A stretch of DNA of 64,000 bases from assembly GCA_027492035.1 (NCBI GenBank), contig JAOZFT010000020.1, positions 75,071 through 139,070 on the forward strand, read 5' to 3'. A program made the translations under genes and the position numbers. Shown here piece by piece: positions 44,521 to 49,260 of the stretch. The DNA comes from Thermoproteota archaeon (lineage in GTDB: Archaea; Korarchaeota; JAOZGF01; JAOZFZ01). How positions within the stretch are numbered: the first letter of the stretch is position 1; each line of letters opens with the position of its first letter. The notes under the pieces were generated by a model. That model had not been told where the DNA came from and ran no database searches. It saw nothing but the letters and a program-made list of their open reading frames with translations.

Positions 44521-45867
44521 TTATTGAACTATTTTTGGAATTTTTATTTCTTCAGGCTCCCAATCCTTTAGTTGCCCTGCTAAAAATGCTTCATAAGCTG
44601 AGAGGTCAAGCAGTCCATGTCCACAGTTGTTAAAAACAATTACTTTCTCCTTACCTGTTTTTTTACATCTTAAGGCTTCATCTATTACGTATTTAACGAC
44701 GTGAGCTGTTTCGGGTGCAGTTATCATTCCTTCAGTTCTAGCTAGTATTTGGGCAGCTTCAAAAACTTCGGTTTGGTGGTAGGCTACAGATTTCATGTAT
44801 CCCTCCTTAATCAGTAGACAGAGTGAAGGCGCTTTCCCGTGGTATCTCAACCCTCCAGCGTGAATTGGGGGAGGGGCGTATCTGTGCCCTAAAGTATACA
44901 TTTTCAGTAAAGGTGTTTTTTCAGCTGTGTCCCCGTAATCGTATGTGTAAACTCCTCTAGTTGTCGAAGGAACTGCCTTAGGTTCAACAGCTACGAATTC
45001 AGTTTCTGTTTTACCTTTTAATCTATCCATCATGAAAGGATAACTGAATCCTGCGTAATTGGATCCTCCTCCTATACATCCAGCGACGATGTCGGGGTAT
45101 AGATCCATTTTTTCAAATTGTTTTATTGTTTCAAGGCCTACAATTGTTTGGTGAAGTAAGACATGGTTTAAAACAGAGCCTAGGCAGTAACGTGTGTCTT
45201 CATGTGTTAACGTATCCTCTAAAGCTTCACTTATAGCTATTCCGAGTGAACCATGGCTCTCAGAATTCTTCTTCAAAATTTTCCTCCCAAACTCTGTCCT
45301 TTCACTAGGGGAGGGAAAAACCTCGGCTCCCCAAACTTGCATCATTGTTTTCCTGTAGGGTTTCTGAAGATAACTTATTTTCACCATGTAGATAGTGCAT
45401 TTAAGGTCAAAGAATGCACTAGCCATGGCTAAGGCAGAGCCCCACTGCCCCGCTCCTGTTTCAGTTGTCACTCTCTCAATCCCCTGTTTCATGTTGTAGT
45501 ATGCTTGAGGAATGGCAGTGTTAGGTTTATGGCTGCCTGGTGGATTAACATATTCACACTTGTAGAAAATTTTCGCTGGCGTCTTAAGGAATTTTTCAAG
45601 CCTCCTAGCTCTCTTTAAAGGAGTTGGTCTCGGCATTAATTTATATGCTTCCAACACCTCCTCTGGAATTTTTATGAATCTTTGACTAGAAACTTCCTGT
45701 CTAATGAGTTCTTTGGCAAATATCCTTTCAAGTTTAGCTGGGTTAATTGGTTTCAGGTCTACAGGGTCTAAAGGAGGAGGTAAGGGTTCAGGTAAATCCG
45801 GTAAAATATTATACCAGGAAGTTGGCATTTCATCTTGCTCCAAAAAAACAGCATCTGGTATGGCCAT
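44521..45867 (-). CDS. trpB2: Tryptophan synthase beta chain 2 (TrpB2)
   Basis: [51 protein letters not shown]. Confidence 0.93.
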
Positions 45868-45981
45868 CTCTACACAACACCTCCAAATTTTTTAAGAAAC
45901 AGGTCTCGGGATAACGGAAATTTAAAGTAAAGAAACGAAGAATTAATGTTCTGTGTTTTTAGCCGGATTGAAGCCTTGATT

Positions 45982-46023
45982 TTACTGTTTAGTTTTGTAA
46001 GTTGGCCAAACGTTATCCCTCAT
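45982..46023 (-). other. Candidate uORF/leader peptide MRDNVWPTYKTKQ upstream of trpB2
   Basis: ATG at 46023 with AGGAG about 10 nt upstream, one TGG codon, TAA at 45982-45984. Confidence 0.4.
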
Positions 46024-46061
46024 TTCTTTCCAGCTCCTAAATCCTTTTTCGAAGCAGGTAG

Positions 46062-46088
46062 CTATAATGCTCAATCAAGGCATTATAG
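46062..46088. promoter_or_regulatory. Inverted repeat CTATAATGC-N9-GCATTATAG just downstream of a minus-strand TATA-like ATTTAAAT
   Basis: Perfect 9-bp arms; the position fits an operator or 5' hairpin for the trpB2 leader. Confidence 0.45.
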
Positions 46089-46515
46089 TCATATTTAAAT
46101 CTTATATGTTAATTTTTGTACTAAAAAGTCAAATATATAAAAAAAGAAAAATACAATAGGAGGAAAAATAAAAAAATGAAAGTAACGGAAAAATTTTTTA
46201 AAAGAAATGAAAAGAGAACAAAGTTTTTCCCCATACTAAGTAAATTTTTAGTAAACTTAATTTAACAACATTCATCCTTTACTTTAAACTATTCCTCCAC
46301 TCCTTTTCAATTTCCCCTTCTGATTATTATAATTAAGATGTTCTTAGTTAAAATAACCATTTCTCTTATTCTATACTAAAATGTACTTCTGTCTACTCTA
46401 CAAGCTGTTATTTTGGCAAATAGCCAGAAAGTCTAATTAAAACTTCGATAATTCCTTTATAATAAATCGACATGACCGCTAATTTTGTTTAGAGTATTCT
46501 CTCCATCCTATTGCC

Positions 46516-47040
46516 CTATTCTTTTTTTGAGGTTTTAAGATGTAGTTTAGCGGCTTCGCTCAATCTACCTCTACCATATTTCTTCGCAAATTCCATTGCA
46601 ACTTTTTCTACCTTTCCTGATGACCCTTTAGGAATGTGAAGTTTGTATTTCCTATTCAAGGTTTCTAGCTCTCTTAAAAACACATGCTTAGCAACAATGG
46701 AGGCGCTGCAACTGCATAAGTCTTGATTTGATCAAGTTCTCATCGCCAAATTAATTTGAGGTAACATAACTGCATTTTACTTCTGAAAGCATGTTCTCTA
46801 AAAGTTCCTTGCGTGTCTCTATGCTAGAAGTTGGTTTAAAGTTTTAATTTGTCCATAAAATTTATTATATTTTTGAGATTTATCTTTAACTATTTTTTAC
46901 TACCCCTTACCCCTAGCAAAGATAAAAAACGTAGTGTACTTTTATTTACATACACAAGCGGCTATGACCAGTGGACAAAATAGCCTCCCTTTCCTGCTTC
47001 ATCAAGTCTTGTTAGACCTCTCAAAAACAAATTTTGAAAA
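46516..47040 (-). pseudogene. rnhC: Ribonuclease HIII pseudogene
   Basis: Ordered motifs across frames: DEAGKGGYFCPLVIAA, LGVRGSKK, KYNKFY..IKTLNQLLA*RHAR, TSN*FG, AVAA/ASIVAK, IPKGSS, AKLHLKT; multiple stops, frameshifts and deletions. Confidence 0.85.
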
Positions 47041-47567
47041 GAAGTTTGCTTTTAAAGGTGGGAGCAGCCTTAAAGACTCCTCCTTGTTGTCCACCTTAAC
47101 CCACCCCACTGTCTTTTTAATTTCCCCCTAAATCTTTTTTAGTTCTACCTCCAATATAAATGCTAGCAATGCTCTAAATAATGAGGAAGAAGAATTGTGC
47201 AGTTTATACCAAGTTGGAGATGGTGGAATGATTACTCCCCTTAGACTTCAACACCTTTTGAGTATATTCTCCATTCCGTTTTCAAGCATTTTATAAATAA
47301 CCTTTGGGTTTCAGTGCAGCACCAGCAATGAACGGCATTTCCTGAGATCTATGGCTTCATTCAAATAATTCCAACAAAAACCTTTAAAAGCCTTTACTGT
47401 TACAGGTGTCTTTTCTAACCTTCTTTGCTTATTTTTGTTCCAGTCTTTAAATATTGAAAAATTTATGTTTTAATTTCCTAATTATTTTATTCGTTCAAGT
47501 TGCTTCATCAATTATTCACAACACATTTTTTTAAATAAAAGTTTTTCTCAGCGTTTAATATAACGTA

Positions 47568-48806
47568 GTGGAACAGAGGGAGTCAGGGGCAATGCCGAAA
47601 GGAAGCAAGTTTTTAACTTTGTTTAGTTTAGAGTTTCTTGTTCTGTGGCTAGTTGTTTTTGCAGCTTTTTTCGCTGGTTCTTTGTGCAGCCCAACTGTTC
47701 CTTACTTGTTAAAGGAGTTTCTTACACAAGAAGCTGCTGTTGTAGCCATGATTGGGTATTTATCTTCCCTCCTCACCCTTGCAAGAACAGTAAATAATGT
47801 TCTAGGTGCTGTTTTAGCGGACAAAATTGAAAGGGGAGCTATTATCCTTATTTCTCTTGGCTTACTGCCCCTCTCCTTTTTATTGCTTTGGTTTGCAACC
47901 GACACCTGGTGGGTTTTGGCTTCATATCTTTTTTTTGGTTTCGTCTTCGGTCTTTCTATGCCTTCCTTTAATGCTATAGTCGCTGACTTAGCTAAGAAAA
48001 GTAACAGAGCCACTGTTTTCGCCGTGTTTAACCTTTCATGGATTATTGCTCAAATATTAGCCCCTGTAATTGGAGGTTTACTTTCAGATAACTTCTTTTT
48101 GCGTCTACCTTTCATTGCGGCCTTCTTTGTTTCAGTAATGACTTTTTTAACTTACACAGTTTACTTCAAGAAAATGCACAGAAACTTTCCTAACCTCTGG
48201 CTTAAGCCCTACAAAAACAAAGAATCAATTAATGAAGTGGGTTACAGTAACTATTTCAGAAAAAACTTGTATTTGCTGTGCAGTGCACAATTTTTTTCAG
48301 GTTTCAGCAACGGAGTCTTCTTGTTAGCTGTAACAGCTTTCCTAATGTACTCCCTAAAAGCTTCCCCCACCGGAATGGGTGTTTCTTTTTCATTAGGTTG
48401 GGGTGTAGCGACTGCTCTGGCACAAATCCCAGGAGGGAAGGTCAGTGACAAATTTGGCTTTAAAACAACTATCATATCTTTTATTTCAGCAGCGACACCT
48501 TTCTTCCTTTTACTCCCCTTATCCACCACCCTCCTCCAATTTACACTTGTGTTCACTCTTTTATGCTTCATCGGAAACCTTTCCACACCTGCTTTATCTG
48601 CATGGATTGCAAACTTGTTTTCAGCTAGAGAAAGGGGTAGAGGGTACGGTTTAACTTCTGCAGCTTGGGGAGTAGGGGCAGTGATTGGCCCCGCAACAGG
48701 AAGCATTGTTTGGACATTGTCGAAACCCAATTACTTAATTCCGTTCATAGCTGCTGCAGCTTTGCTTCTCTCTCAATTGCCATTAATTGCTTCAATAAGG
48801 GATTAA
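47568..48806 (+). CDS. MFS transporter
   Basis: About 12 TM segments; motif A variants GAVLADKIER and GGKVSDKFGFK; ERGRGYG. ATG at 47592 is an alternative start. Confidence 0.9.
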   Translation: MEQRESGAMPKGSKFLTLFSLEFLVLWLVVFAAFFAGSLCSPTVPYLLKEFLTQEAAVVAMIGYLSSLLTLARTVNNVLGAVLADKIERGAIILISLGLLPLSFLLLWFATDTWWVLASYLFFGFVFGLSMPSFNAIVADLAKKSNRATVFAVFNLSWIIAQILAPVIGGLLSDNFFLRLPFIAAFFVSVMTFLTYTVYFKKMHRNFPNLWLKPYKNKESINEVGYSNYFRKNLYLLCSAQFFSGFSNGVFLLAVTAFLMYSLKASPTGMGVSFSLGWGVATALAQIPGGKVSDKFGFKTTIISFISAATPFFLLLPLSTTLLQFTLVFTLLCFIGNLSTPALSAWIANLFSARERGRGYGLTSAAWGVGAVIGPATGSIVWTLSKPNYLIPFIAAAALLLSQLPLIASIRD

Positions 48807-48837: not shown

Positions 48838-49260
48838 CTATTTTATTTTCTCTAGAATTATGGCTGGACATATTCTTATAACTCCTTCAATACCTTCTAG
48901 TTTTTTCACAAACTTTGAGAGTTCTTCAGAGTTTCTGAACCAGCATTCAGCCATGATCATATGGTCTCCACTTGAAGAGTATAGACTCACCACTTCCTCC
49001 ATTTCCTTTAGTTCCTCGAGAACGGAGAGGTAATTCTCAGGTTTTGTATCTAAACCTATTAAAGAAACAATTTCGAAACCTATTTTTTTAGGATTTATTT
49101 CTATTGTATACCTCCTTATTACTCCTTCTTTCTCTAATTTCTTTATCCTTTTCCTCACTGCTGTTTCAGTAACTCCTAGTTTCTCTGCAATTTTAACCAA
49201 TGAAGTTCTCGAGTTTTCGCGAAGTATTTTGAGCAGTTGAAAGTTTGAAAATCGAACCAT
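48838..49260 (-). CDS. Lrp/AsnC transcriptional regulator (LrpA-like)
   Basis: NSRTS..KIAEKLGVTETAVRKRIKKLE..GVI; SSGDHMIM; RICPAIILE. Confidence 0.9.
   Translation of the reverse strand: MVRFSNFQLLKILRENSRTSLVKIAEKLGVTETAVRKRIKKLEKEGVIRRYTIEINPKKIGFEIVSLIGLDTKPENYLSVLEELKEMEEVVSLYSSSGDHMIMAECWFRNSEELSKFVKKLEGIEGVIRICPAIILEKIK

Follow-up and report, generated by a model that had tools for sequence, protein, structure and literature searches.

A putative programmed +1 frameshift site with a tryptophan codon as sensor in the trpB2 leaders of Korarchaeota

We analyzed the leader of the tryptophan gene trpB2 in a 64,000-nucleotide (nt) stretch of korarchaeal DNA, which is called the window and to which all coordinates refer; the leader features are read on the minus strand. 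The genome that holds the window, designated G000, comprises 1.87 Mb in 42 contigs with 36.6% G+C and is 93% complete. The gene product was identified as TrpB2 by the NCBIfam models NF009057 (699 bits) and TIGR01415 (673 bits), both above cut-off, and by the Pfam family PALP. In the 93% complete G000, no match to trpE (PF00425) was found, nothing above cut-off was obtained for trpA (PF00290), and no second TrpB was detected, the sole further match being 28% identical with an E-value of 1.9e-10. Therefore, TrpB2, encoded by the only trp gene that was recovered from G000 with the queries used, appears to stand alone, and it presumably serves indole salvage. Between a promoter-like element and trpB2 lies a short leader open reading frame (ORF) with a single tryptophan (Trp) codon, which is the subject of this report. 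The features of the locus are as follows, where SD stands for Shine-Dalgarno sequence, BRE for B recognition element, frame 0 for the frame of the leader ORF, and +1 for the frame that a forward slip of one nucleotide would enter.

44521..45867, minus strand: trpB2, 448 amino acids, with its ATG at 45867 and with NCBIfam and Pfam matches; the gene proposed to be regulated
46091..46103, minus strand: BRE/TATA-like element AAGATTTAAATAT, a presumed promoter
46088-46080 and 46070-46062, minus strand: 9-bp inverted repeat CTATAATGC-N9-GCATTATAG, the longest perfect stem of the leader
46034..46038, minus strand: SD of the leader ORF, AGGAG, 10 nt before the leader ATG and complementary to the 16S 3' end of G000 (...GGATCACCTCCT)
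45982..46023, minus strand: leader ORF in frame 0, MRDNVWPTYKTKQ and a stop, 13 codons, the unshifted product; ATG at 46023-46021, TAA at 45984-45982
46005..46023, minus strand: core element ATG AGG GAT AAC GTT TGG C, conserved in relatives
45870..46007, minus strand: continuation in the +1 frame, GGC ... GTG TAG, 45 sense codons, stop-free and crossing the trpB2 SD
45878..45884, minus strand: SD of trpB2, GGAGGTG, which reads Gly-Gly-Val in the +1 leader frame
45908..45916, minus strand: CGTTATCCC, 3' arm of a helix proposed earlier, judged incidental

A preliminary description, made from the letters of the window, had placed a TATA-like element, the 9-bp inverted repeat, the SD AGGAG, an upstream ORF, and the trpB2 SD GGAGGTG in this region. 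All of them were found in their places, and the TATA-like ATTTAAAT (46100-46093) lies inside AAGATTTAAATAT (46103-46091). The core element consists of a start codon, SD-like G-rich codons 2-3, a spacer codon, the putative slip codon GTT, the Trp codon TGG, and a 3' C. The TGG at 46008-46006, codon 6, is the sole TGG of the leader ORF, and the preliminary description had allowed that a single Trp codon might be there by chance.

Relatives of the locus were collected by the TrpB2 protein, not by the motif, which yielded 30 loci, each from a different genome, among the 43 genomes of the same small phylum. An element of the form start-(G-rich codons 2-3)-NNN-NTT-TGG was observed upstream of trpB2, of a SerK-like gene followed by trpB2, or of trpE in 29 of these 30 korarchaeal loci; in the thirtieth (L018), a contig end about 100 nt upstream cuts it off. 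The exact motif occurred once per genome in 23 of the 43 genomes, and the reversed control gave no match. Every exact match adjoined trpB2, and one genome (G007) held a second copy directly at trpE. Within G000, the core element in its window form is unique, and only one of 15 relaxed matches combines an ATG start, an SD, and the layout of a short frame 0 with a long +1 frame. The leader ORF and its TGG are therefore kept in relatives that were found independently of the motif, and the TGG, far from being a chance codon, is the most conserved feature of all. The preliminary description had proposed the ORF as a possible gauge of Trp supply. Because the conserved Trp-codon leader ORF is tied specifically to tryptophan genes, a Trp sensor that is read by the ribosome is indeed very likely.

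The leaders took several forms within the phylum. The only same-family genome (G001; TrpB2 62% identical) carries the leader ORF (M)MRDRVWLNRETSK. In 19 Korarchaeum-like loci, the SD GGAGGTG is followed by ATG GGG GAT YTA GTT TGG CYN and a stop codon (MGDLVW[L/P]), with CTC, CTT, CTA, CTG, or CCT as codon 7 and with all three stop codons in use. Loci that seemed to be without the element were found to carry variants of it ahead of a SerK-like (ParB-type) ORF preceding trpB2, namely GTG GGG GAT CTA GTT TGG, ATG GGT GAC CGT CTT TGG, ATG GGT GGT TTA CTT TGG, and ATG AAT GTA GGG GAT CTA GTT TGG. The best NCBIfam match of this ORF is the ADP-dependent L-serine kinase SerK at 76 bits, far under the cut-off; such a protein would presumably suit TrpB2 enzymes with O-phosphoserine as substrate. 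A tblastn search of G000 detected no SerK-like gene, and trpE was present in only two of the 43 genomes of the phylum.

Two further observations concern gene order. The ParB-type ORF, with its DGHHR motif, stands between the putative frameshift site and trpB2 in eight korarchaeal genomes (L003, L004, L010, L025-L028, and L030; also L035, 1516-1971). In G001 (L002, contig C215), the gene order after the leader is trpB2, trpE, another TrpB-like match with 32% identity to the query, and trpA, all on one strand, and a single frameshift leader may govern the whole trp operon there.

Outside the phylum, a pattern scan of species genomes returned at least 119 stretches, and the distribution that it gives is incomplete. 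Among the matches listed, which comprise 80 loci, 17 were archaeal and trp-linked: 10 were korarchaeal trpB2 loci, and seven came from records titled Bathyarchaeia or Bathyarchaeota, where MRD[NH]VW... stands directly at the 5' end of trpE. The other 63 listed loci were chance-looking matches in long ORFs or unrelated DNA. A TrpE-anchored set, which avoids circularity, was built with PF00425 in the order of a genome titled Bathyarchaeia (G043), where 25 of 61 sampled genomes contained TrpE. The element was present at the TrpE 5' end in 23 of these 25 loci (19 by a relaxed regular expression and four by inspection), and the other two were partial matches. The leader peptides include MRYHVW, MRYCVW, MGNRLW, MGYRLW, MRDNFW, MRDIIW, MRNRLW, MRGCVW, MGDSLW, and MGDILW. 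The exact motif was found in 4 of 401 sampled genomes of the G043 class, which is an underestimate because the element varies. One more exact match, encoding MRDSVWLNIRR and a stop, was seen at 1601-1620 of L172, a record titled Poseidoniales archaeon, about 30 nt from the contig end. If that locus is trp-linked, the element would extend to a record of this title as well.

Metagenomic relatives of TrpB2 (80 loci of 197 confirmed, 54-74% identity) were also compared. None of the 80 loci had the D.VW motif and none had the generalized layout; many of the 21 upstream regions viewed show TGTACA boxes beside a divergent ORF. Some of these proteins, up to 74% identical, are closer to the window enzyme than the TrpB2 of G001 is, yet their genes are without the element. 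Therefore, the leader is lineage-specific and does not travel with TrpB2.

The conservation of the element lies in its nucleotides. The slip codon is GTT, CTT, TTT, or ATT and is always followed by TGG, and residues 2-5 of the peptide vary (e.g., MRYHVW, MGNRLW, MRDNFW, MRDIIW, and MGGLLW). The TT before TGG is thus fixed, and the encoded amino acid is not (residue 5 can be V, L, I, or F, and residue 3 also Y, N, G, or C). Codons 2-3 are G-rich in the TrpE set as well (AGG or GGG plus NAT, or GGT GAT, GGT GAC, or GGC GAT), and the base 3' of TGG is mostly C. The UGG never varies, and what lies downstream is trpB2, trpE, or a SerK-like gene with trpB2. The slip site is conserved at the nucleotide level, not at the peptide level. 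The same comparison bears on a TnaC-like arrest, in which a nascent M-R-D-x-V-W peptide together with free tryptophan would stall the ribosome and repress downstream translation. The peptide does read M-[GR]-D-x-V-W in Korarchaeota and in part of Bathyarchaeia, as such an arrest would have it. However, it varies at residues 2-5 in the anchored sets, where the TT-TGG nucleotides are fixed, a peptide of 5-6 residues would barely reach into the exit tunnel, and the +1 frame would have no explanation. We therefore regard arrest by the nascent peptide as highly improbable.

Next to the site itself, the three reading frames of the leaders showed a regular layout. In the window, the +1 frame (TTT GGC CAA ...) holds 45 sense codons from 46007 to the TAG at 45872-45870, 2 nt before the trpB2 ATG. 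It is shut just upstream of the site by the TGA within ATGAGG, as it is by TGA or TAG in relatives, and it contains no ATG, GTG, or TTG save the last codon. The frame-0 ORFs of 23 trpB2-type leaders have 7-13 codons, with stops always far upstream of trpB2, and in all 23 no stop interrupts the +1 frame for 30-58 codons after the slip site. The same stretches hold 81 stops in frame 0 and 47 in +2 (per 847 codons each), and neither of these frames is stop-free in any of the 23; the compared stretch ends at the first +1 stop by construction, so that the informative part is where this stop falls. It overlaps the trpB2 start, as ATGA or [AG]TGCTGA, in 21 of 21 Korarchaeum-like leaders, and the TAG-AG-ATG junction of the window places it within a few nt of the trpB2 start, as in termination-reinitiation pairs. 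The leaders differ in length and are mostly unalignable in sequence, and the +1 stop is still at the start; thus, the phase is kept. The +1 peptides of relatives all end GG[DEV].. over the trpB2 SD.

Where an enzyme gene follows the site, the +1 frame leads into it. In seven SerK-type leaders examined (L004 left out), it runs for 144-163 codons through the SerK-like ORF; in six of them its stop is part of an NTGA that overlaps the trpB2 start, and in L003 it is a TGA 5 nt ahead of the next ATG. At trpE, the +1 frame is TrpE itself (453-474 codons). Six trpE loci (L164, L202, L260, L262, L267, and L270) have no ATG, GTG, or TTG in the TrpE frame from the bounding stop to the conserved LES.EG region. 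In addition, the +1 spacer avoids TGG, with one in 847 codons versus 9 and 10 per 824 codons in the two remaining frames, as would be expected of a frame that must be read when Trp-tRNA is short.

An open +1 frame could also be used without frameshifting. The +1 ORF would then be started separately, at a non-canonical codon or by reinitiation, a pause at TGG or nearby termination would gate entry, and the +1 ORF would be coupled to trpB2. Coupling at ATGA overlaps is established (PMC6728339), and in some of the Korarchaeum-like leaders the +1 ORF contains an in-frame ATG after 5-9 codons, which in L005 and L008 follows AGGAG. Canonical starts in the +1 spacer are, however, sporadic and unconserved, being absent from L002 and L021 and confined to the last codon in the window, and the six trpE loci named above are without any in the TrpE frame. 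Furthermore, every +1 frame is open directly from the slip site onward, and the invariant TT-TGG with a variable first base would be left unexplained. Accordingly, we consider two separately started ORFs unlikely.

The preliminary description had proposed leader-peptide attenuation as a possibility, in which a ribosome stalled at TGG blocks a long-range helix between GGGATAACG and CGTTATCCC and thereby alters termination at a U-rich tract or initiation at trpB2. The leader ORF, its Trp codon, and the complementarity do exist, since GGGATAACG (46019-46011) is exactly complementary to CGTTATCCC (45916-45908) over 9 bp that cannot be extended. Transcription-translation coupling also exists in archaea. 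However, when the 233-nt leader was shuffled 2000 times with its dinucleotides preserved, 18% of the shuffles held at least one perfect 9-bp stem, and the duplex of the motif with downstream sequence (-15.2 kcal/mol versus -13.6 +/- 2.2 in shuffles; z -0.72) is at chance level. The minimum free energy (MFE) fold of the window leader does not use the helix, and no counterpart was found in the same-family G001 or elsewhere among 22 related leaders. Across 23 leaders tested for complementarity between motif and downstream sequence, the mean z was +0.91 with none below -2, indicating no excess in any of them.

The terminator part of that proposal fared similarly. The pyrimidine-rich stretch at about 45945-45918 is present as described, but it sits inside the 45-codon stop-free +1 frame and does not hold up as the U-rich tract of a terminator. 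No run of five or more T was found between the leader ORF stop and trpB2 in the window, and no oligo-T run recurs in the 330 nt upstream of trpB2 in the relatives' leaders. Sequestration of the trpB2 SD relative to shuffled leaders was likewise unremarkable (mean z -0.18; 0 of 23 above 1.64). With the helix at chance level and outside the MFE fold, and with the U-rich tract in the +1 ORF, the helix and terminator parts of attenuation fail, and with them the idea that a stalled ribosome breaks the helix. Attenuation would also leave the stop-free, in-phase +1 frame and the trpE fusions unexplained. It is thus very improbable as the mechanism of this leader.

The promoter region raises the question of transcriptional control. 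The AGATTTAAATAT box is identical in G001, and near-identical boxes (AAGATTTAAATA and AAGGTTTAAATA) stand upstream of Bathyarchaeia trpE leaders. The inverted repeat at 46062-46088 closely follows the TATA box and spans the expected transcription start, a position that makes it a possible candidate operator. Another inverted repeat, ATATAAC/GTTATAT, occupies the equivalent position in G001. The arm GCATTATAG of the window repeat was also seen to resemble a TTATAGTC box after the TATA of Bathyarchaeia trpE promoters (L153, L157, L268, and L269), and this likeness could reflect a shared operator or initiator element.

Control might then be exerted at transcription alone, by TrpY or another repressor at the inverted repeat by the TATA box, with the leader ORF conserved but passive. 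TrpY represses trp genes in Methanothermobacter (PMC6737238). The preliminary description had mentioned a Met-Trp minigene at trpY of that organism; the passages on trp control in PMC6737238 name only TrpY and TRP boxes. In G001, a divergent TrpY-family gene (L002, 3130-3642; 177 bits against a cut-off of 180) is accompanied by TGTATA-N4-TGTACA before a shared BRE/TATA, TGTACA-like boxes are found in Bathyarchaeia trpE promoters, and G000 itself has a TrpY homologue (contig C1, 3227-3733) that is 54% identical to that of G001. That homologue is, however, unlinked to trpB2 and has no TGTACA nearby, and window positions 45800-47600 contain no TGTACA, only an AGTACA at 46122-46117. A subgroup of Korarchaeum-like loci, including L011, L013, L017, L019, and L023, has a TGTACA box, but most Korarchaeum-like leaders lack it in the 330 nt upstream of trpB2, and all keep the element. 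Moreover, a passive element would not hold phase, stop avoidance, and NTT-TGG across phyla. Control at transcription alone is therefore very unlikely. A repressor at the inverted repeat would possibly add to control by the leader instead of replacing it; E. coli combines TrpR and attenuation.

Upstream of the trpB2 promoter, about 1.5 kb (46104-47567) separates it from an MFS transporter gene (47568-48806, plus strand), and this gap holds no ORF longer than 65 amino acids. It contains four small ORFs without Pfam match and has neither an Rfam match nor a TGTACA box. A search with Rfam returned no family in the whole window at gathering scores and none in 45800-47600 at E up to 1. A trpY-type gene fills the equivalent position in G001 and metagenomic relatives, and the gap could be decayed DNA. 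An Lrp/AsnC-family regulator of 140 amino acids (48838-49260, minus strand) adjoins the MFS transporter and a peroxiredoxin gene and shows no evident link to the leader.

At the 5' side of the leader ORF, the SD AGGAG pairs with the upstream AGCTACCT in the predicted MFE fold. It was observed that within 46031-46063 the SD is preceded by its own complement, AGCTACCT..AGGAGCT. In the Korarchaeum-like leaders L005-L024, 25 nt before the leader ATG, both sides of the SD hairpin change together as judged by eye, the paired changes being CACCTC/GAGGTG, ACCC/GGGT, CTTC/GAGG, and ACCT/AGGT. Such a small hairpin at the 5' side may restrict the access of ribosomes to the leader.

Taken as a whole, the comparative sequence evidence suggests that the trpB2 leader is probably a programmed +1 frameshift site with the Trp codon as its sensor. 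Ribosomes would start at the leader ATG at 46023 and read ATG AGG GAT AAC GTT; with GUU in the P site, the ribosome would pause until Trp-tRNA arrives at UGG. As long as charged tRNA-Trp is ample, UGG would be decoded and the 13-codon ORF would end 114 nt upstream of trpB2. Under scarcity, the A site would stay empty, which would allow the P-site tRNA to slip from GUU to UUU, and the SD-like stretch just upstream, paired with the 16S 3' end, would probably help the slip. GGC would then be read, and the 45-codon spacer would be translated across the leader and the trpB2 SD. Termination at the TAG 2 nt before the trpB2 ATG would promote translation of TrpB2 by termination-reinitiation or by delivery of ribosomes. 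Slippage would thus rise on a shortage of Trp-tRNA, and TrpB2 output would rise with it. In relatives, the same site would feed ribosomes into TrpE or the SerK-like protein as a trans-frame fusion, and in these settings the shift would be the only or main route into the enzyme frame.

Several points weigh against frameshifting as the route to TrpB2 or limit how far it reaches. The SD of trpB2 is a strong one and shows no special sequestration, so that some basal translation of TrpB2 independent of frameshifting is likely. In G001, a gap of about 30 nt separates the +1 stop from the trpB2 start, a long distance for reinitiation. An ATG stands in the TrpE frame at +10 in four related trpE loci and at -5 in G007, indicating that frameshifting is not strictly required there. 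Taken alone, the open +1 frame of the window leader is weakly significant, since it arose in 7.1% of dinucleotide shuffles; by this conservative test the value was 2-48% of trials per leader, with 2.8% for G001. The case rests on relatives that share ancestry, and the leaders are not mutually independent. Some of the motif counts rely on patterns in which RGG, GAT, or TTTGG is fixed, and for those bases they are circular, which the TrpB2- and TrpE-anchored sets are not.

The spacer and the slip itself add to these points. The peptide of the +1 spacer is not conserved: substitutions by codon position were 104/90/108, with no selection detected, and changed codons were synonymous in 32 cases versus non-synonymous in 167. 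Stop avoidance, phase, and TGG avoidance are its only coding signatures, and it appears to be the translation of the spacer that matters, not its product. Re-pairing of tRNA-Val on UUU would be limited to two of three positions, with a mispair at the first; neither tRNA-Trp nor tRNA-Val was among the 18 tRNAs that aragorn found in G000. For nucleotides 1-12 of the window element, pairing with the 16S 3' end was calculated as -8.1 kcal/mol, within the top 3.6% of 1065 G000 gene starts. Seventeen variants gave -5.6 to -12.7 kcal/mol, 13 of them in the top 4%, compared with -2.8 +/- 2.4 for the 1065 starts; however, this background comes from the AT-rich G000 alone and two pairing registers are possible, so the comparison is supportive only.

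The proposed site resembles the autoregulatory +1 frameshift site of prfB, the release factor 2 (RF2) gene of bacteria, where SD-like AGGGGG is followed by a UAU spacer, CUU UGA, and then C (PMC13245932). As in prfB, an NUU slip codon is followed by U (CUU U in prfB; GUU, CUU, UUU, or AUU here), a G-rich SD-like element lies just upstream, a C usually follows the A-site codon, and the frame-0 product is short. In contrast to prfB, where a stop codon is read by RF2, the A-site codon here is the sense codon UGG, to be read by Trp-tRNA. The site also differs in being archaeal and in its position at codons 5-6, directly after the start. The +1 frame of the window is, unlike that of prfB, a non-conserved spacer that leads to a separate gene; in the trpE and SerK-like relatives it is the enzyme body, as in prfB.

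Slips at slow sense codons offer a second comparison. The site CUU_AGG_C of yeast Ty1 has a slow A-site codon, and hungry-codon frameshifting under amino-acid starvation has been documented (PMC5009743). The leader would share with Ty1 and with the experimental hungry codons of Gallant a +1 slip of the P-site tRNA on NUU while a sense A-site codon awaits a scarce aminoacyl-tRNA. However, Ty1 relies on a constitutively rare tRNA and yields a fixed product ratio, whereas here the charging of a normal tRNA would control the matching biosynthetic genes. Tryptophan limitation induces frameshifting at Trp codons in human cancer cells (PMC13751296); that is described as mistranslation, whereas the leader would be an evolved and positioned control element.

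As in bacterial trpL, a short leader ORF would gauge charged tRNA-Trp by its Trp codon and set trp expression, in some relatives perhaps in combination with a Trp-binding repressor (TrpY here, TrpR there). Unlike trpL, the leader has a single Trp codon, no conserved terminator or antiterminator helices, and no U-run terminator, and its output would run through the reading frame and translational coupling. Classical Trp leaders usually carry two or more Trp codons. As in archaeal gene pairs coupled at ATGA or TGATG, the stop of the +1 leader frame falls in or beside the trpB2 start, and strict translational coupling at stop/start overlaps is described for Haloferax volcanii (PMC6728339). Unlike in such pairs, the upstream frame would be enterable only by a change of frame, so that the coupling would be conditional.

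To our knowledge, little has been learned of how archaea sense their amino-acid supply during translation. No description of a Trp-codon frameshift leader in archaea was found in the open full-text literature, with subscription journals and supplements outside the scope. A passage of a 2019 paper, which describes TrpY and TRP boxes for archaeal trp control, notes that little is known of archaeal tryptophan regulation beyond TrpY (PMC6737238), and the natural role of starvation-induced frameshifting is left unclear in the corresponding passage of a 2016 review (PMC5009743). Autoregulatory +1 frameshifting is a known kind of control; the sense-codon sensor of amino-acid supply, conditional translational coupling as the output, and the domain of life would be new. 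We lean towards the broader view that a dedicated recoding switch, a start-proximal NUU-UGG site, governs tryptophan genes in at least two deep archaeal lineages, Korarchaeota and Bathyarchaeia. It would turn a lack of charged tRNA-Trp directly into a +1 change of frame, and only that frame would lead to the synthesis of TrpE, the SerK-like protein, or TrpB2.

If true, this would be the first natural operon control by amino-acid-sensing frameshifting and the archaeal counterpart of bacterial attenuation. It would give hungry-codon frameshifting a natural function, and it would explain the apparent missing start codon of trpE in many Bathyarchaeia genomes, which is a problem of annotation. The element, of about 20 nt, would also be a compact and portable amino-acid sensor for synthetic biology. 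For the control of biosynthetic genes, a frameshift read-out of tRNA-Trp charging would represent a new logic.

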